Below are positions 2,343-25,723 of a stretch of DNA of 64,000 bases, piece after piece. Each line of letters opens with the position of its first letter. The first letter of the stretch is position 1. The position numbers and the translations under genes were made by a program. The DNA is from a virus (taxonomy: Duplodnaviria > Heunggongvirae > Uroviricota > Caudoviricetes). The stretch is taken from the IMG/VR virus record IMGVR_UViG_3300008111_001458; one strand, written 5' to 3'. Below the pieces are notes generated by a model. The model was not told where the DNA came from and searched no databases. It saw nothing but the letters and a program-made list of their open reading frames with translations.

Positions 2343-3371
2343 ATGGTAAAAGCAATACAGAGACTCAAGGATGAAAACACATCCGGTGGTGAGATTGTCG
2401 AAACCGATGGCAACACTACTGTTTATGCTAATGATCGTTTAGTATCTGTTAATACAAGTTTAGTTGGAGAATTCATAGAAGGCGATATACAAGCCAACGA
2501 TGTAACCGCTAACGGAAGCAATGCAGTGTTTGTTCGTTTAATTGGAGTCAACTACACAACTAATAAAGACGAAAGTGGTGCTACTAGAATTGGTGGTAGT
2601 TCGGACGTTTTTGTTGGAGATGATGTTGATCAAGATATTCCTAGTATTAGAGAAGTTGTAACTGCCGACGATCTTGACCTCGATCCTGAAGATCCAGGAG
2701 CTGGCCGAAGAAGGTACGAAGAGCTAGTAAGAAATGGTACTATTAGCAAACGAGAACAAGATGTTGCTTCCCCAAAACCCAGTGGAAAGAAAGATACTGC
2801 TCCTAGTAAATTTACCGGGACACCAACAACTGCCTGCGAAGGAATTGAATTAATAGTTGAACCCCCCGGTCTTCCTCCATTACAGGGATCGGTGTTAGAT
2901 GCTGTTCAATTGTCACCAAGATTCACTGTTGGAAAACTAACTAGAGCTCCTAATATAATTTTTGATCATCCCCTTAAACTTGGTGATTTAAGATTATCAT
3001 TAGCAGAAACTGTGTGTAATTTAAAATTACTAGCAATCAATGTTTTAGAACCTATTTTTTCTAAATACCCAAATGCTTTTATAACAAATACATTTAGACC
3101 TGCATCAACAAGTCAAAAAAGTCAACATGTTACAGGACAAGCGGTGGATTTGCAATTTAGAAATGTCACTAAAGGTGATTATTATATAATTGCTCAAGAT
3201 TTAAAAAATTTAGTCCCTTTTGATCAATTTTTATTAGAATATAAAACTACAGGTACTAGATTACCGTGGATACATATAAGTTTTAGTAAATCCAACAATA
3301 GAAAACAGGTTCTTACTTTGCTTAATGATACAACATATGGTCAAGGACTAATTGATTTACAGGCACAATAA
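2343..3371 (+). CDS. Protein with a C-terminal LAS / peptidase-M15-like (D-Ala-D-Ala carboxypeptidase fold) peptidoglycan hydrolase domain; possibly virion-associated
   Basis: The C-terminal third carries SQHVTGQAVD ... WIHISF, which matches the S-x-H-x-x-G-x-A-x-D ... H zinc signature of the VanY / M15 family. The N-terminal 200 aa are not recognised. Confidence 0.55.
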   Translation: MVKAIQRLKDENTSGGEIVETDGNTTVYANDRLVSVNTSLVGEFIEGDIQANDVTANGSNAVFVRLIGVNYTTNKDESGATRIGGSSDVFVGDDVDQDIPSIREVVTADDLDLDPEDPGAGRRRYEELVRNGTISKREQDVASPKPSGKKDTAPSKFTGTPTTACEGIELIVEPPGLPPLQGSVLDAVQLSPRFTVGKLTRAPNIIFDHPLKLGDLRLSLAETVCNLKLLAINVLEPIFSKYPNAFITNTFRPASTSQKSQHVTGQAVDLQFRNVTKGDYYIIAQDLKNLVPFDQFLLEYKTTGTRLPWIHISFSKSNNRKQVLTLLNDTTYGQGLIDLQAQ

Positions 3372-3781
3372 TGAAAAAATTATTTTGGAACATTTTAGGA
3401 TTTTTAAGTTTGGGTATGGCCTACATAGGTTTGGTAACCCCCGGCATTCCTTACTCACCATTCATTGTATTTTCTGCATATTGTTTTAGCAAAGGCTCAG
3501 AACGTATGCATCGTTGGATCTACAATCATAAGATTTTTGGTCCGTTCTTAACCAACTGGACAGAAAAGCGTGTGTTCCCAACTAAACTAAGATATCTCAT
3601 GTTAGCCATGATGAGTCTAAGTTTAGTGCTGATGTGGACGGGAGGGGTTAAGCCTATAGGGATAATCAGCACAGCAATATTCATGCTTTTAGTTGCAGTG
3701 TGGGCCTGGAGATATCCAGCAACACCAGAAGAACATGATCAAAGAAAATTAGATAATAAGAGGATTGGATGGCTAAAATAA
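3371..3781 (+). CDS. DUF454 / YbaN-like inner-membrane protein
   Basis: 136 aa with 3-4 TM segments. The motif GIPYSPFIVFSAYCFSKGSERMHRW is typical of the YbaN family. Confidence 0.55.
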   Translation: MKKLFWNILGFLSLGMAYIGLVTPGIPYSPFIVFSAYCFSKGSERMHRWIYNHKIFGPFLTNWTEKRVFPTKLRYLMLAMMSLSLVLMWTGGVKPIGIISTAIFMLLVAVWAWRYPATPEEHDQRKLDNKRIGWLK

Positions 3782-4026
3782 CATTGAACGAATTAATTGA
3801 CATTGCTTTTGCTGCCGAGGAAGGGGATCCAATTGAGTGGGGAATCTTTACCAACGGTAAAGAACAAGCAATGACAATGATCGGAACTAGTATCTTAGAA
3901 CAGTTCGACAAAGACATTATTACAGATGAAGATAAACTAATACTGTTAGCAACAATTACTAAATTGGTAACAGAAAATATGGTATTAAACACAAAGCTAT
4001 TGACATTGTCTAAAAAAGATAGTTAA
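3769..4026 (+). CDS. Hypothetical protein
   Basis: 85-aa ORF. Confidence 0.4.
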   Translation: MAKITLNELIDIAFAAEEGDPIEWGIFTNGKEQAMTMIGTSILEQFDKDIITDEDKLILLATITKLVTENMVLNTKLLTLSKKDS

Positions 4027-4108: not shown

Positions 4109-4239
4109 TTTTTAATCTTTTAATTTTAGCATTTGCTGTATACTGTTTAGTAGTATGGATCCATGCGTTAGTAACATACGATTGGACTAAATTTGAAGAG
4201 GATTCAAAAGACGACGATTTTTTGAAACCTTATGAATAA
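4105..4239 (+). CDS. Small membrane peptide (44 aa)
   Basis: Hand-found ORF MIFNLLILAFAVYCLVVWIHALVTYDW... It ends just upstream of the tmRNA acceptor piece. Confidence 0.2.
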   Translation: MIFNLLILAFAVYCLVVWIHALVTYDWTKFEEDSKDDDFLKPYE

Positions 4240-4243
4240 AGAA

Positions 4244-4307
4244 TTGTTGTAATTCCTTCAAAGTGAAGGCATTCTGGACGCGGGTTCGACTCCCGCCAGG
4301 TCCACCA
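4244..4307 (+). ncRNA. ssrA: tmRNA acceptor piece (3' half of the tRNA-like domain: T-arm + acceptor 3' strand + ACCA) of a permuted two-piece tmRNA
   Basis: The sequence ggcattctGGACGCGGGTTCGACTCCCGCCaggtccACCA is near-identical to the 3' end of canonical tmRNA. It ends in a discriminator A plus CCA. No 5' acceptor strand lies upstream, so it is not a tRNA. Confidence 0.6.
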
Positions 4308-4428
4308 ATAGAGATGATTATGAACACTACACAAACTATAAAATTAGCAGGATTTTTTCTAGGAACGTATATTTTATACAGACTAGGATTAGAAGTTTGG
4401 TGTATAGTTTATGGACTACTTTATTGAT

Positions 4429-4646
4429 GGGCCTGACATGGTTTCGACAGGGTGAGATAATAGAGACGGCAACACGGTAGGCGATGACCGTAAATCAAGC
4501 AAATCTATAAATGCAAACGATAATGCATTTGACTTTACAGCAATGAGCTTCACCGGTAACACTGTTGCCAATGACAGCAAATTTGCTCTAGCAGCCTAAG
4601 AAACTGCAAGTCCGGGGTAGCTATACCTTGTAACCCAAAATAGTGA
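4429..4646 (+). ncRNA. ssrA: tmRNA coding piece (5' acceptor strand GGGCCUG, D-loop analogue, resume codon and tag ORF ANDNAFDFTAMSFTGNTVANDSKFALAA, stop TAA at 4597-4599)
   Basis: gggcctgacatggtttcgacaggg matches the canonical tmRNA 5' end GGGGCUGAUUCUGGAUUCGACGGG. GGGCCUG pairs with caggucc of the upstream piece with a G3-U wobble. The reading frame 4514-4599 begins GCA-AAC-GAT (A-N-D) and ends ALAA-stop. Confidence 0.6.
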
Positions 4647-4672
4647 AAAGCCCCCTTGGGGGCTTTTCTTTA
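4646..4672. terminator. Bidirectional rho-independent terminator
   Basis: GC stem agccccc-tt-gggggct followed by a T run. It sits between the tmRNA coding piece (+) and the convergent lipoprotein gene (-). Confidence 0.6.
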
Positions 4673-5134
4673 TTGCGGATAGACTAAAACGTTTTCTTCG
4701 GTTCCGATAATAGGATCAACTATAAGTTTCCCAAATCCTAGCATGGTCTGATTAGTGTTAATAGCAATGTCTTTGTTATTGTTGCTGTTGACTATGGCAA
4801 GATCAGTGCTTTTCCCAATACCATAAATTTGAGTAAGGCTGGGCACAATTACACTAGCCCACCGCAGAGCTGTGTCGCCTGTGCTAGTAGGTTGCTGTAG
4901 CTTAGGACTGTTGTTTTCCGGTGCGCCTTGCTGTAATGCAATTACAGCGGCTACACGAGCCGTGGTGTCGCCACTATTGGCAATAGCTTCTAATGCCTTG
5001 TATCGTGCAATTTCTGCTTCTGCTCTTGCTAGGGCAATATTTTCTTGGGTTTGGGCGTATTGTTGGTAGTTGTTAGATGCACAACCAGTTAGTGTTATGA
5101 CGCAGATGGCGCCGGCGAGAATAGTTTTTCTCAT
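4670..5134 (-). CDS. Lipoprotein (signal peptide with lipobox LTGC)
   Basis: 154 aa. The N-terminus MRKTILAGAICVITLTGCASN fits a lipobox. It is the only minus-strand gene in the first 27 kb. Confidence 0.55.
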   Translation of the reverse strand: MRKTILAGAICVITLTGCASNNYQQYAQTQENIALARAEAEIARYKALEAIANSGDTTARVAAVIALQQGAPENNSPKLQQPTSTGDTALRWASVIVPSLTQIYGIGKSTDLAIVNSNNNKDIAINTNQTMLGFGKLIVDPIIGTEENVLVYPQ

Positions 5135-6283: not shown

Positions 6284-6817
6284 ATGAAAACAGTTGGTGA
6301 TAAAATTGAAGCATTTGCCGTAACCGGCGTTAATCCTGGTAAAGATGATTTCTTTACCATTACTGAAAAGTCATACGAAGGTAAGTGGAAAGTAATTGTT
6401 TACTATCCAAAAGACTTTACATTTGTATGCCCAACAGAAATCGTAGCATACGATAAATTGAATAGTGATTTTGCCGATCGTGACGCAGTATTACTAACTG
6501 GTTCAACAGATAACGAATTCTGTAAACTGGCATGGCAAGCAGCCCATGAAGATCTTAAAAAAATCAAACATGTTCAGTTTGCTGATACACAGCGTAACGA
6601 ATTGAGCCTTATTGATCAGCTTGGCGTATTCTATGCTCCAGCAGGTGCTGCACTTCGTGCAACATTCATTGTTGATCCAGAGAATGTTATCCAACACATT
6701 ACTGTCAACAACTTGAATGTTGGTCGCTCACCAGAAGAAACACTTCGTGTATTAGACGCATTGCAAACAGGTGAACTTTGTGCTTGCAACCGTACAGTTG
6801 GCGGAGAGACACTGTAA
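6284..6817 (+). CDS. ahpC: Peroxiredoxin (AhpC/Prx1 family, typical 2-Cys)
   Basis: 177 aa with the peroxidatic motif FTFVCPTEI. RBS aaggag is 7 nt upstream. Confidence 0.85.
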   Translation: MKTVGDKIEAFAVTGVNPGKDDFFTITEKSYEGKWKVIVYYPKDFTFVCPTEIVAYDKLNSDFADRDAVLLTGSTDNEFCKLAWQAAHEDLKKIKHVQFADTQRNELSLIDQLGVFYAPAGAALRATFIVDPENVIQHITVNNLNVGRSPEETLRVLDALQTGELCACNRTVGGETL

Positions 6818-7332
6818 TGACTGCTTGGGTAGATCAAATTAAAGAAACTATTCCGGACTATGCTAAAGACACTCGTCTTAACATTGATGCAGTAGTTAAG
6901 CGTTCTACTCTACCCCAAGAAGAAGCAGAAGCTGTTGCTATCGCAGCGGCTTTTGCCACAGGTAATAGTAAACTGTGGACTTGGATGCAGAGTCAGGCAA
7001 TAGATAAGAAAGAAACTGAAGCAGCAGTTACCGCAGCTAGTCTAATGGCCATGAACAATGTATGGTACCCATTCGTTGAAATGGCTGAGGATCCTAATCT
7101 AACAGGATTACCGGCACAGTTGCGTATGAACGCAATTACTACACATGGCGGCACTACTAAAGCAAGATTTGAAGCATATTCTTTATCTGCTAGTATTGTT
7201 GGCAAGTGTCATTTTTGTGTGAAAGCACATTATGAAACACTCAAGCAAGAAGGATATACAGTAGAACAATTACGTGATATTGGGCGCATAGCGGCAGTTA
7301 TCACCAGTGTATCCAGAGTACTAAATAGTTAA
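6817..7332 (+). CDS. ahpD: AhpD-like carboxymuconolactone decarboxylase family protein (alkylhydroperoxidase partner)
   Basis: The start is reset to ATG 6817 (TAATG overlap with the ahpC stop; same frame as the 6778 track ORF). It has a CxxxH motif (KCHFCVKAH) and is adjacent to ahpC. Confidence 0.6.
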   Translation: MTAWVDQIKETIPDYAKDTRLNIDAVVKRSTLPQEEAEAVAIAAAFATGNSKLWTWMQSQAIDKKETEAAVTAASLMAMNNVWYPFVEMAEDPNLTGLPAQLRMNAITTHGGTTKARFEAYSLSASIVGKCHFCVKAHYETLKQEGYTVEQLRDIGRIAAVITSVSRVLNS

Positions 7333-7369
7333 TCGCCGTAACAGAACTGTAATCTTAGGTCTCTTAAAT

Positions 7370-7405
7370 AAGAAGGTACAACATAGTGTTGTACCTTTCT
7401 TTTTA
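7370..7405 (+). terminator. Rho-independent terminator after ahpD
   Basis: 14-bp stem aagaaggtacaaca / tgttgtacc(t)ttctt followed by TTTTT. Confidence 0.55.
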
Positions 7406-7428
7406 TTCACTCACACAAGGAGATTACA

Positions 7429-8454
7429 GTGAAAAAAATCATACTGACACTACTGGCGGCATTGACCGTTTCAGCACATGCAGCGGATCTAACAGGAGCA
7501 GGGGCAACATTTCCTTATCCTATCTATTCAAAATGGGCCGAAGCATATAAAGCAGCAACAGGCATCGGACTCAACTATCAATCAATTGGTTCAGGCGGCG
7601 GCATCCGTCAAATCAAAGCTAAGATTGTAGATTTTGGCGCCAGTGACATGCCACTAAAACAAGACGAATTAGACAAAGACGGTCTAATGCAATTCCCTGC
7701 AATCATTGGCGGAGTTGTGCCGATTGTAAACATTGATGGTATTGGTGCAGGACAACTTAAACTTACCTCAGACATTATTGCTGACATCTATATGGGTAAG
7801 ATCGTCAAGTGGGATCATCCCAGCATCACAGCAATCAATCCAGGATTAAAATTACCTAATGCAAATATCTCTGTGGTTCACCGCAGTGATGGTTCAGGTA
7901 CAACCTTTATATGGACTAACTGGTTAAGCAAGACTAATAAAGAATGGGCAGATAAAGTCAAAGACGGCACCGCAGTCAAATGGCCAATGGGTGTAGGTGG
8001 TAAGGGCAATGAAGGTGTAAGTGCTGTGGTCCAACAACTAAAAAATAGTATTGGTTATGTAGAATATGCCTATGCTAAACGCAACAAGATTCCACACGCA
8101 CAAGTCAAAAATCGTGATGGCAACTTTGTACAGCCTAGCGATGATACATTCAAGGCAGCGGCAGCAGGTGCAGACTGGGCAAATGCTCCAGGGTTCTATC
8201 TATTGCTAACAGACCAAAAAGGCAAGGACGCTTGGCCTATTACAGGTGCCAGTTTCATTCTCATGCATAAGCAACAAGAGGATGCACTAACAGGTCGTGC
8301 AGTTCTTAAGTTCTTTGATTGGAGTTACAAGAACGGCGGGCAGATGGCTACAGATTTAGAATATGTACATCTTCCACAATCTGTTATTACATTAGTACAG
8401 AATCATTGGAAGACTCAGTTAAAAGATAAGGATAGCAACGCTATTTGGAAGTAA
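7429..8454 (+). CDS. pstS: Phosphate ABC transporter substrate-binding protein
   Basis: 341 aa. GTG start with RBS aaggag, a signal peptide, and the PstS-family motifs TFPYPIY ... SIGSGGG ... GASD. Confidence 0.85.
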   Translation: MKKIILTLLAALTVSAHAADLTGAGATFPYPIYSKWAEAYKAATGIGLNYQSIGSGGGIRQIKAKIVDFGASDMPLKQDELDKDGLMQFPAIIGGVVPIVNIDGIGAGQLKLTSDIIADIYMGKIVKWDHPSITAINPGLKLPNANISVVHRSDGSGTTFIWTNWLSKTNKEWADKVKDGTAVKWPMGVGGKGNEGVSAVVQQLKNSIGYVEYAYAKRNKIPHAQVKNRDGNFVQPSDDTFKAAAAGADWANAPGFYLLLTDQKGKDAWPITGASFILMHKQQEDALTGRAVLKFFDWSYKNGGQMATDLEYVHLPQSVITLVQNHWKTQLKDKDSNAIWK

Positions 8455-8464
8455 GCAGTACCCA

Positions 8465-8495
8465 CCGCCAGTGATCACTGGCGGATCTATTTTAT
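8465..8495 (+). terminator. Terminator-like perfect palindrome CCGCCAGTGATCACTGGCGG followed by a T-rich tract
   Basis: 20-bp perfect inverted repeat at 8465-8484 followed by atctatttta. Confidence 0.45.
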
Positions 8496-8506
8496 AAGGA
8501 TTTAAA

Positions 8507-9919
8507 ATGAAAACATTACTTAAGGTAATGCTGGCGTCATCTGTGACAGCATTTATACCTGCACCTGCACACGCAGACGAATACAAAGACACACTTGAAA
8601 TTCTAAAAAATAAAAATATTCTTACACAGAAAGAATATGATATTAAACTTAAAGAATATGAAGAAAAAGAAGAAAACAAAAAGTTTATTGAACAGAGAAT
8701 TGACAGAGATGTCAGCGACTCAGTCAAATACAGACAGGCCAGAGTTAATGACGGATCAGTCACAGAAAACGGAATTGGACTCAAAAGCAAAGATGGCGGC
8801 AACACCGTCCAGCTTACAGGTCGACTACATATGGACTATCGTCAGTACTCCCCGGATTACGGTACAGGTCAAACCACAGATTCGTACCAGAATACTGCTG
8901 AAGCACGACGAGCCAGATTTGGAGTAAGAGGTCAGTTTGCCAAAGATTTCAAATATCAATTATTAGCAAACTTTGGTGCCAGTGATGGTTTTAGTTCAAC
9001 ATCGAGTACAGCAGATGAAATGTGGGTCAACTATGCTGCAAATCCAGAAGCACAGTTTCAATTTGGTTTATTCAAGATGCCATTCAGTCTTGAGCAGTTA
9101 ACAAGTTCAAACAATCTTGACTTTATGGAACGCAGTTTAATTGGTCAAAATGATACAGAGTTTATACCTGCTAAAGAAACTGGATTTATGTTACATGGTA
9201 TTCCTAAGCCTGGCTTAACATACGCTCTAGCATTAAGCAGAGGTAAGAGCAATAAGAGTGCCGAGTTTGATGGCTTTGACTACATTAGTCGTGTAACTAC
9301 AAACATCGCTGAACTAACCGGAAGCAAAGCATATACAGCACATTTAGGTGCCGCTTATAGTACAGGTGAAATCAAAAGCGGTGTAGCTCCAGCAAGTGGT
9401 AGAACAGAATCACGTATGCAATCAGGATGGTTTACAGGATCTGCTCTTAGCGGTGCAACTACAAGAACACGTCAAGGCCTCGAAGCTGCATTTGCTTATA
9501 ATGCATTTAAGGTGCAAGGCGAACATTTTCAATTTAATTATGATCCTGCAACAGGTAACGATCAGAAAATAAATGGATACTATGTGCAAGCTGTGTATAA
9601 TCTAACAGGTGAGTCACACTCATATAAAGATGGCGCATTTGGTTGGATCAAACCTGCTAATCCTTTGGACAAAGGTGGTCGTGGTGCATGGCAAGTTGGT
9701 GTACGTATGAGTGAGTTTGATGCCAGTGACATTACTGTAGCTACCGGCAAATCAAATCGTGCTACTGCTATGACATATGGTGTTACCTGGTTCTGCACAG
9801 ACAACCTACGTTTTATGTTAAATTATGTAGACACAAAATTTGATAGTCTAGTAGGCAGTTCAGGTAGTCGTGTAAACGGCGAACGTGCTGTTATGTTTAG
9901 AAGCCAACTAAGTTTTTAA
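8507..9919 (+). CDS. Outer-membrane porin, probably phosphate-selective OprO/OprP-like
   Basis: 470 aa with a signal peptide (AHA cleavage), C-terminal aromatic residue (F), beta-barrel-like alternating pattern, and position directly after pstS. The family call rests on weak motif recall. Confidence 0.5.
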   Translation: MKTLLKVMLASSVTAFIPAPAHADEYKDTLEILKNKNILTQKEYDIKLKEYEEKEENKKFIEQRIDRDVSDSVKYRQARVNDGSVTENGIGLKSKDGGNTVQLTGRLHMDYRQYSPDYGTGQTTDSYQNTAEARRARFGVRGQFAKDFKYQLLANFGASDGFSSTSSTADEMWVNYAANPEAQFQFGLFKMPFSLEQLTSSNNLDFMERSLIGQNDTEFIPAKETGFMLHGIPKPGLTYALALSRGKSNKSAEFDGFDYISRVTTNIAELTGSKAYTAHLGAAYSTGEIKSGVAPASGRTESRMQSGWFTGSALSGATTRTRQGLEAAFAYNAFKVQGEHFQFNYDPATGNDQKINGYYVQAVYNLTGESHSYKDGAFGWIKPANPLDKGGRGAWQVGVRMSEFDASDITVATGKSNRATAMTYGVTWFCTDNLRFMLNYVDTKFDSLVGSSGSRVNGERAVMFRSQLSF

Positions 9920-9941
9920 TAAATAACTTGGCATTTATAAT

Positions 9942-9967
9942 GCCCCATCTAATGGGGCTTTTTTTTG
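9942..9967 (+). terminator. Rho-independent terminator (gccccat-cta-atggggc + T9)
   Basis: 6-7 bp GC stem with a 3-nt loop followed by nine T. It contains the recurring CTAATGGG motif. Confidence 0.7.
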
Positions 9968-9977
9968 GACACACTAA

Positions 9978-10157
9978 ATGGAAACACACAAACGAACACT
10001 AACACGAGCAATTACATGGAGAATTACCGCAACTCTTATAACTGCGGCATGGACAGGATTGGCAGGAGCTATCGTTATTAATATTTTTATGACTGTTGCC
10101 CACTACATACATGAACGATTTTGGCTAAAAATTGAGTGGGGTAAACAGATCAATTAG
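9978..10157 (+). CDS. DUF2061-like small membrane protein (59 aa)
   Basis: Hand-found ORF METHKRTLTRAITWRITATLITAAWTG... The ITWRI..T...W pattern is characteristic of DUF2061. Confidence 0.4.
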   Translation: METHKRTLTRAITWRITATLITAAWTGLAGAIVINIFMTVAHYIHERFWLKIEWGKQIN

Positions 10158-10265
10158 CCTATTTTAATGAATTTCACTATGGTTTTCTGGTAGTTTTTAT
10201 CATATAATGCAGATACATACTGTTGCAATAGTATGTTTTTATTGTTGTTAAAAAGGAGAAGCATT

Positions 10266-10337
10266 ATGTGGACCAAGCCAGAAGCAACCGAGATGCGTTA
10301 TGGTTTTGAGATCACTATGTACATCGCTAATCGCTAA
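10266..10337 (+). CDS. pqqA: PqqA-like 23-aa peptide (coenzyme PQQ precursor-peptide homolog)
   Basis: [23 protein letters not shown] compared with Klebsiella PqqA [23 protein letters not shown]: same length, 12 of 23 identical, and the conserved E-x-T-x-Y ... NR core (the Glu and Tyr cross-linked by PqqE). RBS aaggag is 8 nt upstream and its own terminator follows. Confidence 0.5.
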
Positions 10338-10356
10338 TACATAGTATCAAAAATCA

Positions 10357-10379
10357 AAACCCGCTCCGGCGGGTTTTTT
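10357..10379 (+). terminator. Rho-independent terminator after the PqqA-like ORF
   Basis: cccgc-tccg-gcggg stem followed by TTTTTT. Confidence 0.6.
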
Positions 10380-10380
10380 C

Positions 10381-10408
10381 TTGACTTTTATTGCAAATAT
10401 GTTATACT
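10381..10408 (+). promoter_or_regulatory. sigma70-like promoter TTGACT-16-TATACT
   Basis: -35 at 10381-10386 and -10 at 10403-10408, upstream of ORF 10441. Confidence 0.45.
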
Positions 10409-10440
10409 ATATGCTCAGTAACTAATTTTGGAGATATACT

Positions 10441-10812
10441 TTGAGTATGCATTTGGAAGGTCCGTGGCTCAGTACCACAGGCAAGAAAAAAAGCAAACGT
10501 AAATTTCGTAATGCTGAAGAAGCACGTAAGTCTCGCGAGTTACAAGATTCTTGGCAGTCGTTGTTAGAAAAGTATGATGTGCCAAAAACTAGTAAACAGA
10601 AAAAATTTGAACCATTAAAGGCCAAATCAGCACCTATAAGAGAGACTCCAAAGATTCCTAGTCTTCCTTTTACTGCTGGACCTTGTACTAAACCAGAGCA
10701 GAAAGTTTATACTGGTACAAAAGTTAAAGGTATTGGCACTATGCATAAAAGTAATGCTGTTCCAATTTTTTCAGACGAAGAAGCTGTAGAAATTGCCAAA
10801 ATGAGGCGATAA
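10441..10812 (+). CDS. Hypothetical basic (Lys-rich) protein
   Basis: 123-aa ORF downstream of a consensus promoter. Confidence 0.45.
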   Translation: MSMHLEGPWLSTTGKKKSKRKFRNAEEARKSRELQDSWQSLLEKYDVPKTSKQKKFEPLKAKSAPIRETPKIPSLPFTAGPCTKPEQKVYTGTKVKGIGTMHKSNAVPIFSDEEAVEIAKMRR

Positions 10813-11112
10813 TACCACATTTTAGTACCAAAATGAGTGATATATGCTATATAAAAATACGTTTCGCAAAGAAACTAAGATAGTAGAACCAAAGTATGTC
10901 AAAAGCTGAAACGGTTCCGCGAGTCTTGGCCAATTGGAAACCCGTGAGATTCGGGCGGTCAAGGCTCCAAAGGCACACAAGTTATGAGATTGTGCGTCCA
11001 ATGGAGACAACTACACGAACCCAGGGTTCTTCATTTAGAGCCTCGTGAAGTTTACTCCCTTAATGTAATGTAATATGAAGTTCGTATTACACCAAATGAA
11101 AGGAGATACAAA

Positions 11113-11652
11113 ATGGAAAAAGTAATAAAACCTATAATTTTGATTATTGGGTTAGTACTAACAGTAATGTCTATTAAAGCTGTTACAGCCGTAAAACTAA
11201 ATCAATTAAAACAGACAGCAGGAGTTTCTTATTCTGATGTTGTCACAATTCGTGAACGTGAGCGTCAGTTAGATTGCTTGGCTAGAAATATCTATCACGA
11301 AGCGGCCAGCGAACCATTTGAGGGTAAAGTTGCGGTAGCACAGGTTACAATGAACCGTGCATCCAGCGGCAAATTCCCAAATGATATTTGCGGTGTTATA
11401 TACCAAAAGAATGTTTTCTATGAAAAAGTAGTTTGCCAATTTAGTTGGTACTGCGAAGGTCACGGTAAAAGCAAACCAATTCGTAGCAAAGAAATGTACG
11501 ACGAATCATATCGTGTTGCTAAAAAAGTATTGTTAGAAAACTTTAGACTTGACGTTATGAAAGAAGCCATGTATTATCATGCTGATTACGTGAACCCTCA
11601 ATGGGGTAGAGAAAAGATTGGCAAAATTGGTCGTCATATATTTTACAAATAA
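11113..11652 (+). CDS. SleB-like cell-wall hydrolase (Hydrolase_2 family) with N-terminal membrane anchor
   Basis: LARNIYHEAASEPFEGKVAVAQVTMNR matches the SleB/Hydrolase_2 core. RBS aaaggag. Confidence 0.65.
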   Translation: MEKVIKPIILIIGLVLTVMSIKAVTAVKLNQLKQTAGVSYSDVVTIRERERQLDCLARNIYHEAASEPFEGKVAVAQVTMNRASSGKFPNDICGVIYQKNVFYEKVVCQFSWYCEGHGKSKPIRSKEMYDESYRVAKKVLLENFRLDVMKEAMYYHADYVNPQWGREKIGKIGRHIFYK

Positions 11653-11661
11653 GGATTAAGA

Positions 11662-11973
11662 ATGGAAAAGTTTGAGTTGTTGTTTAATAAATGCAGAGAA
11701 TTTTTATCTACCAAATTAAGTCACATCAGTAGCGAAGCTTTGGGTTGGTTAGCTACTATTGTGATTCATGCATCAACCTTGCCAACGTTTCTTGCAGTTA
11801 TGATGGGATTAACTGACAAGCTACCTGGCGTTGATATCATTCTAATGGTTTGGGGTGGACTAACCTTGTTGTTCTTTAGAGCCGTGTTAATCAAAGACAT
11901 GCTCAATGTAGCAACAATTGGATTTGGTTTTATTCTTCAAGCTGTATTCATGTCACTGATTTTCTTTAAGTAA
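11662..11973 (+). CDS. Small 3-TM membrane protein
   Basis: 103 aa with three hydrophobic segments. Confidence 0.45.
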   Translation: MEKFELLFNKCREFLSTKLSHISSEALGWLATIVIHASTLPTFLAVMMGLTDKLPGVDIILMVWGGLTLLFFRAVLIKDMLNVATIGFGFILQAVFMSLIFFK

Positions 11974-11991
11974 TTTTGGTAATCACCGTAG

Positions 11992-12020
11992 TTGACTTTG
12001 GTCGACTGCGGTGTTATATT
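11992..12020 (+). promoter_or_regulatory. sigma70-like promoter TTGACT-17-TATATT
   Basis: Lies inside the 5' extension of track ORF 11992, so the real start is ATG 12055. Confidence 0.45.
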
Positions 12021-12054
12021 AGTAACTGTCTTAACACACACAGAAAGAGGCATT

Positions 12055-12531
12055 ATGAAAAAGGCAATTTTAGTAGGCTTAATGGCAGCGGCTATTACAG
12101 GCTGTTCGTCTATGAAAGATATTCCAGAACGTAAAACTTATGCTCAACCTAGTTGGTATCAGGATTGCGCACAAGAAGGCATCAAAGGCTGGTTCTGGTG
12201 GAAAGAAGACTATGTCTATGCCTGCGGTGCAGGTGAATCAGCATACGCACAGGCTGCTGAAGAGCAAATGGATGCAATTGCAATGAATAACTTTGCAAAA
12301 CGCATTAATGGTACAGTAAACTCTGAAACTGTAATTGATATCAAAGACGATAAGAAAACTACTCGTACACTGATTTCTTACAAAGTTACTGATACTGCTA
12401 TTCGTCGTCACGTCAAGACCGAAAAAGGCCACTTTACGATGAATGGACGCCACTACACTTATGTACGGCTTGAAATGAAAAAGTCTACATTTGAACAATT
12501 GATGAACGAAGCTAAACAGAAAGCACAATAA
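12055..12531 (+). CDS. Lipoprotein
   Basis: MKKAILVGLMAAAITGCSS lipobox. RBS agaaagagg. Confidence 0.55.
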   Translation: MKKAILVGLMAAAITGCSSMKDIPERKTYAQPSWYQDCAQEGIKGWFWWKEDYVYACGAGESAYAQAAEEQMDAIAMNNFAKRINGTVNSETVIDIKDDKKTTRTLISYKVTDTAIRRHVKTEKGHFTMNGRHYTYVRLEMKKSTFEQLMNEAKQKAQ

Positions 12532-12845
12532 TGAAATTATTGATTATTGCTGCTACCGCTGTAATTTTAGCGGGCTGTAGTTCTGCCCCTAAAATTGCAG
12601 CCGAAAAGCCGCAGTATTGTCACACTTATCAAACAATAAAATCTAAGAACGGTGATACTGTTAATAGTGAGACTACTGTCAAATGTACTGATGATCAGGT
12701 TGAACGTGTAACTTCAAAACGTCTAGGTATGGCGGACAATTGTGGTTATTTTACTAGTTATATGAAAGTTGGAGGCAAAGATGTTCCGTATCGTGCGATT
12801 AGTTGTTTTGACGGTCGTAATTGGGAAATCATTAATGTTCAGTAA
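12531..12845 (+). CDS. Small lipoprotein
   Basis: MKLLIIAATAVILAGCSS lipobox. ATGA-coupled to the preceding gene. Confidence 0.5.
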   Translation: MKLLIIAATAVILAGCSSAPKIAAEKPQYCHTYQTIKSKNGDTVNSETTVKCTDDQVERVTSKRLGMADNCGYFTSYMKVGGKDVPYRAISCFDGRNWEIINVQ

Positions 12846-13200
12846 TGCATTAGCATCTGATTTTAATAATCCTAAATTTTTTGAATATTCAGGTGGTGAT
12901 TTTATAAATCGTCTTTCTGATCTTAGTTTTGGATGGTTTAAAACACTATCAACTGAAGAAAGTGTAGCTTATCACCAAAGCATAACCCATGCGATAATGT
13001 ACGCAGATAATGGGCAAAGTGTACGTTGGTTTAGAGGAAATGCCAGCGGCGAATCTACCCCAATTATGACATATCCCTCAGGCAATGGTTATTGCAGAAG
13101 GATATATATTAGAGTAATTGCCCATGAAACTGAAAAACGCCTAAAAAATACGGCCTGTTATAATAAGACAAACGACAGGTGGATGTGGGTCAATGAATAA
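12769..13200 (+). CDS. Secreted hypothetical protein
   Basis: N-terminal signal-like segment. The start is uncertain because it overlaps the previous ORF. Confidence 0.4.
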   Translation: MEAKMFRIVRLVVLTVVIGKSLMFSNALASDFNNPKFFEYSGGDFINRLSDLSFGWFKTLSTEESVAYHQSITHAIMYADNGQSVRWFRGNASGESTPIMTYPSGNGYCRRIYIRVIAHETEKRLKNTACYNKTNDRWMWVNE

Positions 13201-16009: not shown

Positions 16010-16591
16010 ATGAACTCAGATATAATGATAGACCTCGAAACCCTTGCCACCACTCCTGATGCTGCAATTTTAAGTATTGGCGCAGTGAAATTTGATCCGT
16101 TTGGGCAAGAATTAAAAGAACCAGCAATGGAAAGTTTTTATCTACGTGTAGATATTGACAGTTGTGATCGGTTAGGATTAGCTACATCACAAGATACTCT
16201 TGAATGGTGGGCAAAACAAAGTCAAGCAGCTCAAGACGAAGCATTTGGAACCGAAGGTAGAGTTGATATTGTTAGTGCTATGAATCAACTTTATAAATTC
16301 TGTTGGGGTGCTAAACGTGTATGGAGTCACGGTGCTGGCTTTGACGTTGTTATTTTAGAAACAGTATTTCGCAAAATGGGAAAAGGTTACCCTTGGAGTT
16401 TCTGGCAAGTAAGAGATACTAGAACAATTTTTGATCTTGGTATCAATCCAGACCGCCCTGAAGTATTAGCTCACCATGCGTTACACGATTCTTATAATCA
16501 AGCAATTGGTGTGCAAAATGTTTTCCGTAGATTGCGAACATCGTCGACATTAGACGGCCAATTGCTTTCTCCATTAAAGGATTCAAGATGA
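16010..16591 (+). CDS. DEDDh-type 3'-5' exonuclease (DnaQ / RNase T / oligoribonuclease-like)
   Basis: Exo I motif IMIDLETL, Exo [14 protein letters not shown] and Exo III HHALHDS (H-x4-D). Confidence 0.65.
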
Positions 16592-17667
16592 GAATCGAAG
16601 ATGAAATCAAATTAGATTTCAAAGATGTTCTTATTCGTCCTAAGCGCAGTACTTTATCAAGTCGCAAAGAAGTTGACTTAACAAGGACTTACAAATTTAA
16701 ACACAGTCGCGCCGAGTGGACAGGAGTTCCGATTATGGCCAGTAACATGGACGGTGTTGGTACACTAGAAATGGCTCATGCTCTATATCAACACAAAATG
16801 TTCACTTGCCTAGTTAAGAATATCAGTACGGTATACTTTGAAACAACCGTACAAGATATAGGAGGCAATCATTTCGCAGTAAGCACAGGGACTTCCGAAA
16901 AGGACTTTGAAAGATTAAGTAACATACTTAATTCTTATTCCGAAATAAAATTTATCTGTATAGATGTAGCAAATGGATATAGCGAACACTTCGGGGACTA
17001 TGTAGAAGAAGTGCGTGAGGCATTTCCTAATCACACAATTATCGCAGGTAACGTTGTTACCGCAGACATGACACAGGAGTTAATTTTACGTGGAGCAGAT
17101 ATTATCAAAGTGGGCATTGGTCCAGGCAGTGTTTGTACAACTAGGATACAAACTGGCGTCGGTTATCCTCAGCTCAGTGCTATTATTGAGTGTGCTGACG
17201 CTGCTCATGGTCTCGGCGGCCATATTATTGCTGATGGTGGTTGTGTGTGTCCCGGTGACATTGCTAAGGCGTTTGGCGCCGGAGCAGACTTTGTAATGTT
17301 AGGAGGCATGTTAGCCGGTCATGATGAGGGCGGCGGTGAAGTTATTGAAGAAATGCACGAACTTTCAAAACTTCAAAAAGATATGTTTTCAAATGATTAT
17401 GAAATTAAAAAATATGTAGAATTCTATGGAATGAGTTCAAATACTGCTATGAACAAGCATCATGGTGGCATAGCTGAATATCGTTCATCAGAAGGACGTA
17501 CGGTAAGAGTACCGTATAAGGGCCCGGTCCAAAGTACAATTTTGGATATGTTGGGCGGACTGCGTAGTTCTTGCACATATGTAGGTGCTGCAAGTCTTAA
17601 ACAATTATCTAAATGTACTACATTTATTAGGGTCAATATGCAATTTAATGATGTCTTTACGAGATAA
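16588..17667 (+). CDS. guaC: GMP reductase
   Basis: [23 protein letters not shown] ... [46 protein letters not shown] is almost collinear with E. coli GuaC. No CBS insert, which marks GuaC rather than IMPDH. Confidence 0.85.
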
Positions 17668-17748
17668 ATAAAAACGCAATTAGCACCCAATGGGCTAATT
17701 GTAACGAGCTCAGTGCTCATTAAATTCTTACTTTTTAAGGAGAAAAAT

Positions 17749-19662
17749 ATGTCAAAAATCATCGGTATCGATTTGGGTACCACAAACTCATGTGTAGCTG
17801 TTATTGAAAACGGCAAATCCAAAGTAATTGAAAACTCAGAAGGCGCAAGAACAACTCCGAGTATTGTTGCTTATACAGACAGCGATATTTTAGTAGGTGC
17901 TTCAGCAAAGCGTCAGGCGGTAACTAATCCCAAAAACACAATTTATGCATCTAAGCGGTTAATTGGACGTAAGTTCAATGAACAGGCTGTTCAGAAGGAC
18001 ATTGACCTAATGCCTTATGAAATTGTCAAGGCAACAAATGGTGATGCTTGGATTCGCGCACAAGGAAAAGAAATGGCACCTCCACAGGTGTCTGCAGAAG
18101 TTCTTCGCAAGATGAAAAAGACTGCAGAGGACTATTTAGGGCATGAAGTTACACAGGCTGTTATTACAGTGCCTGCTTACTTCAATGATAGTCAAAGACA
18201 GGCAACTAAAGATGCCGGTCAAATCGCTGGCTTAGAAGTTCTACGTATTATTAACGAACCTACTGCGGCTGCATTAAGCTACGGTGTTGACAAGACAGAC
18301 AAAGCTGATCGTAAGATTGCGGTGTATGACTTAGGTGGTGGCACATTTGATATCAGTATCATTGAGATTGCCAACGTCGAAGGCGACAAACAAATTGAAG
18401 TATTGTCAACAAACGGCGATACATTCTTAGGCGGTGAAGACTTTGACCAGCGCATTATGGATTATCTGGTTGAGGAATTTAAGAAAGAGCAAGGCATTGA
18501 TCTAACTAAAGATATGTTGGCACTACAACGTCTTAAGGACTCTGCTGAAAAAGCTAAGATTGAATTATCTAATTCTACACAAACTGAAGTTAATCTTCCA
18601 TACATTACTGCCGATGCTAGTGGTCCTAAACATCTAGTGGTAAAAATTACCAAGGCAAAATTGGAACAGTTAGTTGACGATTTAATTCAACGTTCATTAG
18701 AACCTTGTCGTATTGCTATGAAAGATGCCGGAGTTACCGCAGATCAGATCGACGAAGTTATTCTAGTTGGCGGCCAAACTCGCATGCCAAAGGTACAAGA
18801 AGAAGTAGAACGTTTATTTGGAAAAGCGCCACGTAAAGATGTTAACCCAGACGAAGCAGTAGCAGTTGGTGCTGCTATCCAAGGTGCTGTGTTGGGTGGT
18901 GATCGTAAAGATGTCCTATTGTTAGATGTTACTCCATTAACTTTGGGTATTGAAACAGTAGGCGGTGTAATGGCCAAACTGGTTGCTAAGAATACTACTA
19001 TTCCAACTAAGGCAAATCAAATTTTCAGTACAGCTGATGACAATCAACCTGCTGTTACTATTCGTGTGTTCCAAGGAGAACGCGAATTGGCACATCATAA
19101 CAAATTGTTAGGCGAATTTAATCTTGAAGGTATTGATCCAGCACCACGTGGTATGCCTCAAATTGAAGTTACATTTGATATTGATGCTAATGGTATTTTA
19201 AGCGTAAGTGCCAAAGACAAAAATACTGGTAAAGAAAATAAAATTACCATTAAAGCTAATAGCGGCATTACTGAAGATGAAATCAAACGTATGATCGCTG
19301 AAGCAGAACAATATGCAGAAGAAGATAAAAAAGCACGTGAAGTTATTGAAACACGTAATGGTGCATTATCTGAACTGTATACAATTCGCAGAGAATTAGA
19401 AGCAGAAAAAGATCTTGCTACAGAAGAAGAATGGAAAATAATTGAAGATGCACTAGAGGCTGCTGAAAAATTAGTCAATGATAATAGTGACATTGAAGAA
19501 ATTAAGAAAGGTCCTTTCAATGTAGCCGATGCTGCAAAACCTTTGTTTGAAAAAATTAAAGCCAAACGCGAAGCTGCCAAAGCAGAACAATCTGCACCGC
19601 AGCCAACTGATGGTGAAGTGATCGATGCTTCCTTTACAGCAACTGAAGGCAAGGCATCTTAA
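17749..19662 (+). CDS. dnaK: Hsp70 chaperone DnaK
   Basis: [33 protein letters not shown] and the EEVD-less bacterial C-terminus are present. The start is reset to ATG 17749 (RBS aaggag). Confidence 0.93.
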
Positions 19663-19753
19663 GAATACACATATGTGTGTATAATGTTGCGGTACCTAAT
19701 GGGCCGCAACATTGAGCATAAAGCTCATATTCTTACTTTAAAAGGAGATTAAT

Positions 19754-20191
19754 ATGAATAATAATCAGTTAGCACAAATTACAGCTCTTAACAGAGCTCT
19801 TATTGGATTTGACACACTGTTTGATCAAATGGAAAGACGTTTTTCTAATAGTGTATCTAATAACTATCCACCTCACAACATTCTTAAAACTGGTGAAAAT
19901 CAGTATGAGATTCAATTAGCAGTTACTGGATTTGATAAAACAGAAATTTCTGTTACTGTAGAGGACGGAATTCTTATTGTTAAAGGTGAAAGCATGGCTA
20001 CAGATCATGCGCCAGAACAATACATTCATCGCGGTCTTGCTACTCGCGATTTTGTTAAAGAATTTCCTCTAGCAGAACATATTGAAGTTACTGGAGCGGA
20101 AACCAAAAATGGTATGTTAACCATTAAGTTGGTCCGTAATGTTCCAGAGTCTGCGAAACCGAAAGTCATTGACATTGTAGACATTAAGTAA
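19754..20191 (+). CDS. Small heat-shock protein (Hsp20 / alpha-crystallin family)
   Basis: 145 aa with an alpha-crystallin domain pattern (EIQLAVTGFDKTEISVTVEDGILIVKGE ... NGMLTIKL). Confidence 0.8.
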   Translation: MNNNQLAQITALNRALIGFDTLFDQMERRFSNSVSNNYPPHNILKTGENQYEIQLAVTGFDKTEISVTVEDGILIVKGESMATDHAPEQYIHRGLATRDFVKEFPLAEHIEVTGAETKNGMLTIKLVRNVPESAKPKVIDIVDIK

Positions 20192-20197
20192 TATAAT

Positions 20198-20223
20198 TAA
20201 GGGGAAGGAAACTTCCCCTTAAT
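20198..20223 (+). terminator. Perfect 11-bp hairpin TTAAGGGGAAG-gaaa-CTTCCCCTTAA (terminator or attenuator between hsp20 and clpS)
   Basis: Exact inverted repeat with a GNRA loop and no strong T tract. Confidence 0.4.
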
Positions 20224-20240
20224 TAACCTACAGAGGAAAT

Positions 20241-20549
20241 ATGGCAGACGTAGAAACTAAAATCAAAGAAGTAACAAAGACAGTTGAAACTCAACCACCC
20301 AATCATTGGAAGGTAGTATTCTTAAACGATGATTATACTCCCATGGAATTTGTTGTTGCTCTTTTGGTTACTATTTTTAGGCACAGTGAACAATCTGCCG
20401 AGCAGATCACAATAGAAATACACAACACGGGCAGTGCTGTTGTTGGTTTATACACACACGAAATTGCAGAACAAAAGTCTATTGATGCAACAACCGTTTG
20501 CAGACAACACGGTCATCCTTTACAAATTACAATCGAAGAAGACAAATAA
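20241..20549 (+). CDS. clpS: ATP-dependent Clp protease adaptor ClpS
   Basis: VVFLNDDYTPMEFVVALLVTIF ... LYTHEIAEQK closely parallels E. coli ClpS. Confidence 0.85.
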   Translation: MADVETKIKEVTKTVETQPPNHWKVVFLNDDYTPMEFVVALLVTIFRHSEQSAEQITIEIHNTGSAVVGLYTHEIAEQKSIDATTVCRQHGHPLQITIEEDK

Positions 20550-20807
20550 ATGACAGCCGACGAGTTTAAGTTCATACGATATATGAACGCTGAAACTAGT
20601 CGGTTTTCTTTTTGGATAATTTTTCACGACCTTAGAAGATATAATTTGGGTAAAAAAGGAAGAAAGAATTTTATAAGCTTCTTTACAGAAATTCTAGGGC
20701 CAGTAGGTGAGCGTTGGCAATATGAAAAAACAATTCATACATTTTGTATAAAATTAGATAAAGAAATAGATGCCACAATGATGATACTGAGATACGGGCC
20801 TAAGTAA
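20550..20807 (+). CDS. Hypothetical protein
   Basis: 85-aa ORF. Confidence 0.35.
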   Translation: MTADEFKFIRYMNAETSRFSFWIIFHDLRRYNLGKKGRKNFISFFTEILGPVGERWQYEKTIHTFCIKLDKEIDATMMILRYGPK

Positions 20808-20817
20808 ATAAAAAACT

Positions 20818-21384
20818 ATGAGTTTAAAAGAAATTACCAAAGATCTTCATCACGAAGCAGAAACAACCCAATTTGCTAAGATGTTACTTAGCGGAAAAAT
20901 TACTAAAGAAGATTATGCCAACTACCTTTATCAGTTAGTATTAATTTATAATGCTATAGAGTTAGGTAATCGAGTAGAAGGCAATTTTAAAAATCTTCCT
21001 GGTTTAGAAAGAACACACGCAATCTATCAAGACTTTATTGAGATCGCAGGTGTTGATCACAATTACAAATGGTTACCTGGAACTATAGACTATTACAACT
21101 ATCTCTTAAATTTAGTTCGTGATCCTGCGCATCGTCCTAAAATCAAAGCTCATCTATATTGTCGACATATGGGAGATCTGTATGGTGGTCAAATAATTAA
21201 AAAACAAGTAGCACATATTAGCAAAGGTCGTTTTTATGATTTTAAAGATGCAGATGCATTAAAAATGTCCATACGTGCAGAACTAACTGATGACCTAGGA
21301 GACGAAGCAAGAGTTGCGTTTGAATGGGCCATTAAAATGATGAGAGAATTGTATAATGAGTCAGGTCTGGAACAGTCTAATTGA
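20818..21384 (+). CDS. Heme oxygenase
   Basis: 188 aa. The CRHMGDLYGGQ block matches the HO-1 signature YTRYLGDLSGGQ. Confidence 0.7.
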   Translation: MSLKEITKDLHHEAETTQFAKMLLSGKITKEDYANYLYQLVLIYNAIELGNRVEGNFKNLPGLERTHAIYQDFIEIAGVDHNYKWLPGTIDYYNYLLNLVRDPAHRPKIKAHLYCRHMGDLYGGQIIKKQVAHISKGRFYDFKDADALKMSIRAELTDDLGDEARVAFEWAIKMMRELYNESGLEQSN

Positions 21385-22036
21385 AATACAAAAACTGTTA
21401 GAAAAAAGATTTTCAGAGACAGGCATTGAAACTTTTGAGCCCGGAATGGAAAGATTTAATCAACCGGGTTGGGTAAATAGAGTTTGGTGCAGCGATCATT
21501 ATCGCAGAGCTCATGTCGACGTAGTTGACGCCCGATCCTCAAAGGGCCTTTGGATGATGCATTGCTGCATCTTTCCTCACATACACAATCCTGCTCCTAT
21601 TTTTGGATTTGATGTAATTGCAGGAAAAAATAAAATCACAGGTTGTTTTATAGACTACAGCCCAACAGCTGATAAACAGCATCCTATGATCGAATATTTT
21701 GCTGAAGAAGTCAGTAGATACGAATGGATCCGCAAACGTGAACTACCTGAATGGGCGCAACGTATATTCAGTTCACACATGGTGGCCGCTGGCAATGTGC
21801 AAGAAGAATCAGAATTATCTCAAATTAGCGGTCTAGCGAACATTCTAGTAAATCATTATTTAGAAACAGTAGGCGAAACAAATCACAAAGTTGCAGATAC
21901 AACGTTTGAGCAAAATTATTACGCACAGAATCAAAAACAAAATCCGCACACCCCTAGAGTTATGGTTAGTTTGGGGCTTAGTGAAGAAGATGTTAAGCAT
22001 TTTATTCAAGATTGTTTATTTCCAGAAATAAACTAA
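21356..22036 (+). CDS. Ferredoxin-dependent bilin reductase (PebS/PcyA/PcyX-like)
   Basis: 226 aa. N-terminal W..L...QK pattern and the central FDBR core (HIHNPAPIFGFDVIAG ... FIDYSP). It is adjacent to the heme oxygenase that supplies biliverdin. Confidence 0.7.
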   Translation: MSQVWNSLIEIQKLLEKRFSETGIETFEPGMERFNQPGWVNRVWCSDHYRRAHVDVVDARSSKGLWMMHCCIFPHIHNPAPIFGFDVIAGKNKITGCFIDYSPTADKQHPMIEYFAEEVSRYEWIRKRELPEWAQRIFSSHMVAAGNVQEESELSQISGLANILVNHYLETVGETNHKVADTTFEQNYYAQNQKQNPHTPRVMVSLGLSEEDVKHFIQDCLFPEIN

Positions 22037-25711: not shown

Positions 25712-25723
25712 GGAGAGGAGCAA

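Follow-up and report, generated by a model that had tools for sequence, protein, structure and literature searches.

A pqqA gene in a phage genome

The 64,000-nucleotide stretch analysed here (the window), IMG/VR record IMGVR_UViG_3300008111_001458 of a Caudoviricetes virus, carries a 23-codon open reading frame (ORF) for PqqA, the precursor peptide of pyrroloquinoline quinone (PQQ). We consider it likely that this gene is an extra copy of the multicopy pqqA cassette of the host, kept by the phage as an auxiliary metabolic gene. The ORF is a genuine member of the PqqA family. Its peptide exceeded the cut-offs of both curated hidden Markov models (HMMs), scoring 35 bits with the Pfam model PF08042 (cut-off 21.1, E = 1.3e-8) and 38.2 bits with the equivalog model TIGR02107 (cut-off 20, E = 8.8e-10). 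It is 23 residues long, is identical to Klebsiella PqqA at 12 of the 23 residues and keeps Glu15-X3-Tyr19 at the Klebsiella positions. W2, P5, R11, G13, E15, T17 and Y19 were invariant in the phage, Acinetobacter and Klebsiella peptides. This was the only PqqA-type ORF in the window, and the exact peptide had no match in a collection of 15 billion proteins. A 34-codon version starting at 10233 was also listed; its start lacks a ribosome-binding site, and relatives have not conserved it.

An initial annotation, made from the letters alone, had placed a 23-codon PqqA-like ORF at 10266, with 12 of 23 identities to enterobacterial PqqA, the conserved Glu and Tyr, a strong ribosome-binding site and its own rho-independent terminator, and had proposed a PqqA HMM search as a check. 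All of these readings stood (Table 1). Its description of a deliberately expressed minigene, standing alone in a phage, is also supported by the predicted signals around the ORF.

The gene is a homologue of a host gene in a genuine phage genome, as expected of an auxiliary metabolic gene. Several proteins of the window matched phage-only families. The neighbours of pqqA matched phage-family profiles, including that of a phage exonuclease, and the gene directly downstream belongs to phrog_27048 (E = 7e-37). The window also encodes ribonucleotide reductase, a two-piece transfer-messenger RNA (tmRNA) and DnaK, and Pelagibacter phage Mosig has a protein that was 44% identical to one from the window. 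Many IMG/VR contigs, some of them 245-355 kb long, were syntenic with the window at nucleotide identities of about 70-80%. A megablast search with window positions 7400-13000 found no near match among 50,697 catalogued phage records. The 7.1-kb metagenome contig L249 was 98.6% identical to the window from pstS to a cell-wall hydrolase gene and had an identical pqqA; to the left of pstS it carried other genes than the window, and the signal peptide of its PstS differed.

Regulatory signals of the cassette

Besides the ORF, the cassette has its own operator-like palindrome, -10 box, 5' hairpin, ribosome-binding site and terminator, and in this sense is self-contained (Table 1). These signals are described for a viral pqqA for the first time here.

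Table 1. Features of the pqqA cassette (nt, nucleotides).
Feature	Position	Strand	Description
pqqA box, palindrome TAATGAATTTCACTA	10165..10179		9 of 10 specified positions of TnATGA-N3-TCATnA
-10 hexamer TATAAT	10203..10208	+	read from sequence; conserved among aligned relatives
5' leader hairpin, arms CAUACUGUU / AAUAGUAUG	10215..10236	+	-8.0 kcal/mol, z = -2.1
Shine-Dalgarno sequence AAGGAG	10253-10258	+	7 nt before the pqqA ATG; read from sequence
pqqA	10266..10337	+	23 codons plus stop; ATG at 10266, TAA at 10335-10337
Intrinsic terminator AAAACCCGC-UCCG-GCGGGUUUU, then U run	10356..10379	+	-14.7 kcal/mol, z = -3.7 against shuffles

The palindrome, which we call the pqqA box, is the core of a conserved 18-bp motif that reads TTAATGAATTTCACTATG in the window (10164-10181). 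In an alignment of 15 syntenic relatives, this motif, TATAAT, the hairpin, the ribosome-binding site and the ATG followed each other in a fixed order, and the sequence between them had diverged. The box lay at the same position in at least 13 syntenic relatives, again with diverged flanks. It occurred once in the 64 kb of the window, and a role as a general promoter element of the phage was rejected on this ground.

The inferred transcription start lies about 42 nt downstream of the centre of the box. A good -35 hexamer is absent before pqqA, the box filling that region, and a consensus scan called no full sigma-70 promoter there. The TATAAT hexamer is thus a putative -10 element of a promoter belonging to the cassette.

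The leader hairpin was kept in relatives with other arms, such as AAGTACT/AGTACTT in locus L015 and ACGTGTAC/GTACACGT in locus L014. The mean folding z-score was -1.6 for viral pqqA leaders versus -0.27 for a control region. The support for the hairpin consists of folding of single sequences and direct reading of the arms. RNAalifold returned no structure for the leader; MAFFT had misaligned hairpins with differing loop lengths. An Rfam search of the leader matched nothing.

The terminator stem has nine pairs (10356-10364 with 10369-10377), five of them G-C. It starts 19 nt past the stop codon, and the U run extends to 10379. That a consensus scan placed the terminator hairpin on the minus strand only was due to the counting of A-U pairs as stem. 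Strong structure (z < -2) was present in the 55 nt 3' of pqqA for 65% of the viral copies and for 81% of those in bacteria.

Distribution and selection in phages

A PqqA profile scan of IMG/VR found at least 592 viral contigs encoding PqqA. We compared the best 80 IMG/VR loci (L008-L087) with 80 bacterial loci (L088-L167); further counts cover 87 viral and 100 bacterial pqqA copies. The ORF was intact in all of the best 80 viral loci, with 23-25 codons, an AGGAG-type ribosome-binding site almost always and a terminator hairpin usually.

Viral pqqA is kept under purifying selection. Among 78 distinct viral ORFs, third codon positions varied at 20 of the 23 codons, and first and second positions at 8-10. 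The ratio of nonsynonymous to synonymous polymorphism (pN/pS) was 0.19 in the overall viral set and 0.13 among the 15 syntenic relatives, with pS at about 0.65, near saturation. Intact ORFs, these low ratios and the near-saturated synonymous divergence together indicate long retention under selection.

Because this set had been retrieved with the peptide, the intactness of its ORFs was partly circular. An independent sample of relatives was therefore obtained through the cell-wall hydrolase encoded two genes downstream of pqqA. In this sample, 17 of 74 informative relatives had pqqA within 6 kb, intact in every case, and 57 had none. In one equally syntenic relative, L227, ahpD was followed straight by the phrog_27048 gene with no pqqA between them. 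In relatives with the gene, ahpD adjoins pqqA, whereas in the window pstS, a porin gene and a small membrane ORF are inserted between the two. The pqqA cassette is thus an accessory one, and its site, between nrdB and the phrog_27048 gene, is a hypervariable island. The initial annotation had named absence or disruption of the ORF in close relatives as a refutation of its reading. The gene was indeed absent from several equally syntenic relatives, which marks it as accessory and not as spurious.

In catalogued phages, tblastn with the peptide found ten records from methylotroph systems: MEP401, MEP402, MEP301, Venkman, P19250A, four Melnitz isolates and a spring-water podovirus. Two further matches, labelled 'Acinetobacter phage MD-2021a' (one of them L007, CAKLQF020000010.1), were discarded as mislabelled contigs of a bacterial chromosome; these records contain fur and ppk as well as the whole pqqABCDE operon. 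All cultured phages of methylotrophs in the collection had the gene, with complete genomes among them. The gene recurs in many unrelated phages of methylotrophs with several morphotypes, from small podo- and siphoviruses, including phages of 35-44 kb, to a 141-kb myovirus. The ORF was unannotated in five of the six phage records inspected; the GenBank records in which it had been missed are those of MEP402, Venkman, MEP301, P19250A and Melnitz. In Melnitz (MelnitzEXVC044M_152, hypothetical) and in the spring-water virus, an ORF on the wrong strand was annotated over it. In Melnitz (MZ577097.1, L001), pqqA lies at 76134-76208, directly before a tRNA-Leu gene. Standard gene callers thus miss pqqA, so that surveys of viral metabolic genes undercount it.

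These distributions bear on whether the cassette might be passenger DNA, that is, a recently captured piece of the host without a selected function in the phage. Its site in a hypervariable island, the many relatives without it and its host-like character from operator to terminator would all fit such a history. However, a recent and neutral arrival does not accord with ORFs intact in 87 of 87 viral copies, with pN/pS and synonymous divergence at the values above, or with intactness in the 17 copies that were found independently of the peptide. In addition, the cassette was acquired in several unrelated phage lineages, and both where it lies and the signals that flank it have been conserved even though the relatives compared share only about 70-80% nucleotide identity. 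We regard passenger DNA as unlikely.

Likely hosts and bacterial PqqA

Among the matches listed, the closest bacterial PqqAs were at most 87% identical to the window peptide. They came from Methylophilaceae (Methylovorus, Methylotenera, Methylophilus, Methylobacillus and Novimethylophilus), from bins of uncultured Burkholderiales and Rhodocyclaceae, from Methylophaga and from TMED22, a marine bin. The peptide of Venkman was identical to a Methylophilaceae PqqA at NCBI, and that of P19250A to the bacterial copy in locus L119. Viral pqqA loci had 31-44% GC, like the sampled bins of streamlined planktonic methylotrophs.

The tmRNA type hints at a betaproteobacterial host. The best match of the window tmRNA within its Rfam clan was the betaproteobacterial family RF01850, which scored 135.9 bits (gathering score 84). 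The tmRNA of Melnitz, in contrast, was reported as alphaproteobacterial-like (Melnitz paper). The gene of the window is permuted, in two pieces, at 4209-4675 (+), and the tag predicted by ARAGORN ends in ...ANDSKFALAA.

Plausible hosts have the pathway. Many of the sampled bacterial loci were orphan pqqA copies, and 25 of 80 had pqqBCDE adjacent. Genes of PQQ synthesis belong to the core genome of Methylophilaceae, with 3-12 pqqA copies and one pqqBCDE set (PMC4109929). The initial annotation had suggested checking candidate hosts for pqqBCDE; the operon beside pqqA in the 25 loci and the published core genome agree on its presence. In an OM43 strain, xoxF was the most transcribed gene (PMC5120137).

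The window peptide has Tyr12 and Ile16. This variant was common in the copies of T4-like phages, and the two residues occurred in 1 and 3 of the 100 bacterial copies. It may represent an old phage-specific pqqA lineage or a host clade missing from the sample.

A phage-group variant rare in bacteria could also be expected of a decoy, a peptide that binds host PqqD or PqqE unproductively, or disturbs the pathway in some other way, thereby stopping or diverting PQQ synthesis in the host. The positions invariant in bacteria, including Glu15 and Tyr19, were nevertheless kept in 87 of 87 phage copies, and some phage peptides, those of Venkman and P19250A, are identical to bacterial ones. Moreover, to block the main energy pathway would be costly to a lytic phage of an obligate methylotroph. 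A decoy thus appears very unlikely.

Absence of the other pathway genes

With the PqqBCDE set of Acinetobacter as a tblastn query, no PqqB, PqqC, PqqD or PqqE was found in the 64-kb window, as the initial annotation had stated for PqqB, PqqC and PqqD. The same query found no pqqBCDE within 8 kb of pqqA in any of the 80 viral loci, and as a positive control it found the operon at this distance in the 25 bacterial loci mentioned above. The window pqqA is thus without an adjacent pqqBCDE, and so are many members of its family, 55 of the 80 bacterial loci having no operon within 8 kb. A profile scan of IMG/VR built from 25 PqqC sequences found a single contig, in a bin labelled as a giant virus; a single PqqC sequence as query found nothing there. 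Phages thus hold the gene of the precursor, whereas the pathway is essentially absent from them.

The window encodes six radical S-adenosylmethionine (radical-SAM) proteins, at 38.9-57.4 kb. The initial annotation had put them more than 30 kb from pqqA; they are indeed far off, at a measured distance of 28-47 kb. Four of them are B12-binding and methyltransferase-like. In the other two, Pfam detected the Radical_SAM domain, accompanied in one by a zinc ribbon, and neither a PqqD domain or RiPP recognition element (RRE; RiPP, a peptide made on the ribosome and modified after translation) nor a SPASM domain. The best score of any of the six with the PqqE model was 35.1 bits, against a cut-off of 381.35.

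The six enzymes, together with the largely phage-specific Tyr12 and Ile16, raise the alternative that the peptide is a RiPP precursor for enzymes of the phage, which would convert it to a product other than PQQ or to PQQ without host PqqE. The scores and domain contents given above do not favour such a substrate relation, the radical-SAM genes lie at least 28 kb off on the other strand in a module of lower GC content, no PqqE-like gene was found within 8 kb in the 80 viral loci, and phages of 35-44 kb hold the same minigene (their whole genomes not having been scanned for radical-SAM enzymes). Processing by phage enzymes is accordingly among the most improbable of the explanations weighed here.

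The module itself (38928-63675, mostly on the minus strand) has a GC content of 0.30-0.33, against 0.36-0.39 elsewhere in the window. Besides the four B12-binding and two other radical-SAM proteins, it encodes methyltransferase-like and aminotransferase-like proteins and a long series of small paralogous proteins to which family matches assigned no function. No specific characterised family matched its proteins above the cut-off.

The pqqA box in bacteria and a candidate regulator

The box was not confined to phages. The strict palindrome had 53 copies in the 982 kb of bacterial sequence that surrounds pqqA. Every one of them was upstream of pqqA, 51 at 60-200 nt and the other two at about 220 nt. 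At a threshold of at least 9 of the 10 core positions, the box preceded 71 of the 100 bacterial pqqA genes and 33 of the 87 viral ones, where about 2 would be expected by chance. In Methylophaga, both half-sites were changed symmetrically (TAAGGAAAATCCTTA), as expected if a dimeric regulator had co-evolved with its site.

The box resembles a Fur site. It agreed with the 19-bp Fur consensus at 12 of 19 positions in the window and at 15-16 of 19 in some other copies. Neither the box nor a Fur-like site was found before the haem oxygenase gene of the phage in the window. We downgraded the reading as a Fur box, given that the strict palindrome is specific to pqqA, that the half-sites co-vary in Methylophaga and that a gene for a NarL-type regulator is adjacent. 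Despite the likeness to Fur sites, the exclusive tie of the palindrome to pqqA argues for a dedicated regulator.

In 21 of the 80 bacterial loci, pqqA was adjoined by genes for a HAMP-PAS-HisKA_3 kinase and a NarL/FixJ-type response regulator. In 15 of these 21, the regulator gene ended 116-191 nt before the start codon of pqqA, and wherever a box was located in such loci, it fell in the gap between the regulator gene and pqqA. The pair stands directly upstream of box-bearing pqqA in distant methylotroph lineages: at 1694-5700 in L097 and in 20 further loci (L094-L096, L102, L120, L121, L131, L132, L134-L136, L138, L141, L144, L145, L147, L148, L154, L161 and L166). In L097, the response regulator is encoded at 3295-3954, and a Zur-like gene of the Fur family lies about 1 kb away. 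The TMED22 copy, which stands beside a NarL-type regulator gene, has the box CTAATGATTTTCACTAGG, almost the phage sequence, and its peptide ends in -IANR as in the window. No NarL-type regulator was encoded in the viral pqqA loci.

From this gene neighbourhood, we infer that the NarL-type regulator is a nearer candidate than Fur for binding the box. The host-type palindrome suggests that the phage copy is still read by the host regulator of pqqA, which is probably a response regulator of the NarL family. We propose only tentatively that phage pqqA is a regulated member of the host pqqA regulon, with a host two-component system of the NarL family deciding when it is expressed. At high copy number of the phage genome, the operator could also titrate the regulator and thereby alter the expression of the host pqqA copies.

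Titration might even be the main function, with the palindrome as the principal selected element, replicating phage genomes soaking up the host regulator and the ORF being secondary; the box is conserved in phage copies and specific to pqqA, but the peptide itself is under purifying selection at the codon level, the box reaches at least 9 of 10 positions in only 33 of 87 viral copies and many copies of small phages have none, so that this explanation is as improbable as processing by phage enzymes.

If the phage copy is regulated in this way, it would be a case, outside the Pho regulation of cyanophages, of a two-component system of the host controlling a metabolic gene of a phage, and methylotrophs would have a previously undescribed regulator and operator of pqqA. 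We found no description of a pqqA operator in the literature. The pqqA-specific palindrome with its adjacent two-component system is a lead on how methylotrophs control the supply of the PQQ precursor.

Proposed role of phage pqqA

The preferred interpretation of the gene, as an extra host-type copy that serves the phage, follows from its family membership, the selection on it, its phage context, its recurrence, the absence of pathway genes from viruses and the presence of the pathway in plausible hosts. For every PQQ molecule made, one PqqA peptide supplies the Glu and the Tyr, and PqqB-E are catalytic. Since PqqA is consumed and the enzymes are not, the peptide and its mRNA would be the first to run out as host expression declines.

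In the proposed mechanism, the RNA polymerase of the host would make a monocistronic pqqA mRNA of about 165 nt early in infection, from which the phage peptide would be produced in quantity. Host PqqD and PqqE would introduce the Glu15-Tyr19 cross-link, and PQQ would be completed by PqqB, PqqC and the PqqF/G proteases, likewise from the host. The cofactor would then load the periplasmic methanol dehydrogenase XoxF or MxaF. In this way, the supply of pqqA alone could keep methanol oxidation, and with it the flow of energy and carbon, going for phage production. Expression of the gene, processing of its peptide by PqqD/E and benefit to the phage are all inferred here from sequence; the promoter-like -10 box, the ribosome-binding site and the terminator are only predictive signs of expression.

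The initial annotation had offered three roles. Its auxiliary gene boosting host PQQ synthesis fits best. Its decoy is disfavoured by the invariant residues kept in every phage copy, and its RiPP precursor for phage radical-SAM enzymes by the low PqqE score (35 against 381), the lack of a PqqE relative within 8 kb of pqqA in the 80 viral loci and the carriers of 35-44 kb.

Several observations weigh against the auxiliary role. The gene is dispensable, 57 of the 74 independently sampled relatives, equally syntenic ones included, having no nearby copy. The genome may be longer than 100 kb, and the absence of pqqBCDE holds for the 64 kb of the window. The best bacterial PqqA listed is only 87% identical, and Tyr12 and Ile16 are nearly missing from the bacterial sample.

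Methanol enters the carbon cycle of seas and fresh waters through PQQ-dependent methanol dehydrogenase. That a phage should bring along the consumable precursor alone points to the supply of PqqA as the weak link of PQQ synthesis in infected cells. Carriers of the gene are available in culture with their hosts (Venkman and Melnitz with H5P1, MEP301 with FZCC2181, P19250A with IMCC19250, and the other MEP phages), which makes direct testing possible.

Comparison with known systems

The closest counterpart of the cassette is bacterial pqqA, above all the orphan copies of Methylophilaceae and related methylotrophs. The two share the length, the invariant residues and Glu-X3-Tyr, and both pass the two HMM cut-offs. 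The bacterial orphan likewise stands alone with its own ribosome-binding site, terminator hairpin and upstream palindrome. The window copy differs in lying between phage-family genes in a phage genome and in the Tyr12 and Ile16 of its peptide. The distance from box to start codon also differs, with a median of 82-86 nt in phages versus 130 nt in bacteria.

A comparable case is psbA of cyanophages, which encodes D1. There too, the phage carries only the fastest-used component of a host energy pathway, and the host supplies the rest. D1, however, is a structural subunit that turns over, whereas PqqA is a peptide destroyed stoichiometrically to make a small-molecule cofactor. As for regulation, cyanophage pstS and phoA are reportedly under the control of host PhoR/PhoB via Pho boxes (work attributed to Zeng and Chisholm in 2012). 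A phage metabolic gene likewise keeps the site of a host regulator there, and its expression follows the physiological state of the host; at the pqqA box, by contrast, binding of a regulator is deduced from genomic association.

Phage copies of pqqA were already known, and the window is a further example of modest novelty. Viral PqqA was reported in T4-like phages of Lake Baikal predicted to infect Methylophilaceae (VP_266; Coutinho et al. 2020, PMC7678222). These phages had about 35% GC and genes for ribonucleotide reductase, radical-SAM proteins and methyltransferases, and an auxiliary gene supporting methanol dehydrogenase was proposed (PMC7678222). VP_266 has the same gene as the window, is the same kind of phage and was given the same role. 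The window, in its 64 kb, has no methanol dehydrogenase gene, and that report gives no regulatory signals of the cassette. It also stated that P19250A lacks such genes, which is contradicted by the unannotated pqqA found there by tblastn. Elsewhere, pqqA appears in a list of viral genes of phosphorus cycling (PMC13188868), and the Melnitz paper does not mention it. We found no literature report of pqqA in phages beyond PMC7678222 and this list entry. The initial annotation had therefore overrated the novelty of the gene, a viral PqqA having been in print since 2020.

What the present analysis adds is the scale, at least 592 viral contigs with PqqA against one with PqqC, the unannotated pqqA of cultured methylotroph phages, the accessory status of the gene in a variable island, and the host-type operator with its candidate regulator.

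Other features of the window

The island of host-like genes upstream of pqqA (6284-10157, +) holds ahpC, ahpD (CMD family), pstS, a gene for a phosphate-selective porin O/P and a 59-residue membrane ORF that is weakly DUF2061-like. Downstream, more host-like genes at 16588-22036 (+) encode a GMP-reductase-like protein, a full-length DnaK (649 residues), a haem oxygenase and a bilin reductase that depends on ferredoxin. At 25058-26188 (+) lie adjacent genes for two coiled-coil proteins, paralogues of 217 and 154 residues; they share the segment TVISIGGY-FTPAKLM and the C-terminal end, and matched no PHROG family. Between these regions, at 22352-24953 (+), lie the genes of two adjacent secreted-looking proteins. 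One of them is very rich in Asn, Thr and Ser, and the other contains at least five tandem copies of the Cys motif C-S-I-N-A/P-L-Y-D-P/S-T/G-C-P-G-Y-A-Q-A-Y/F.

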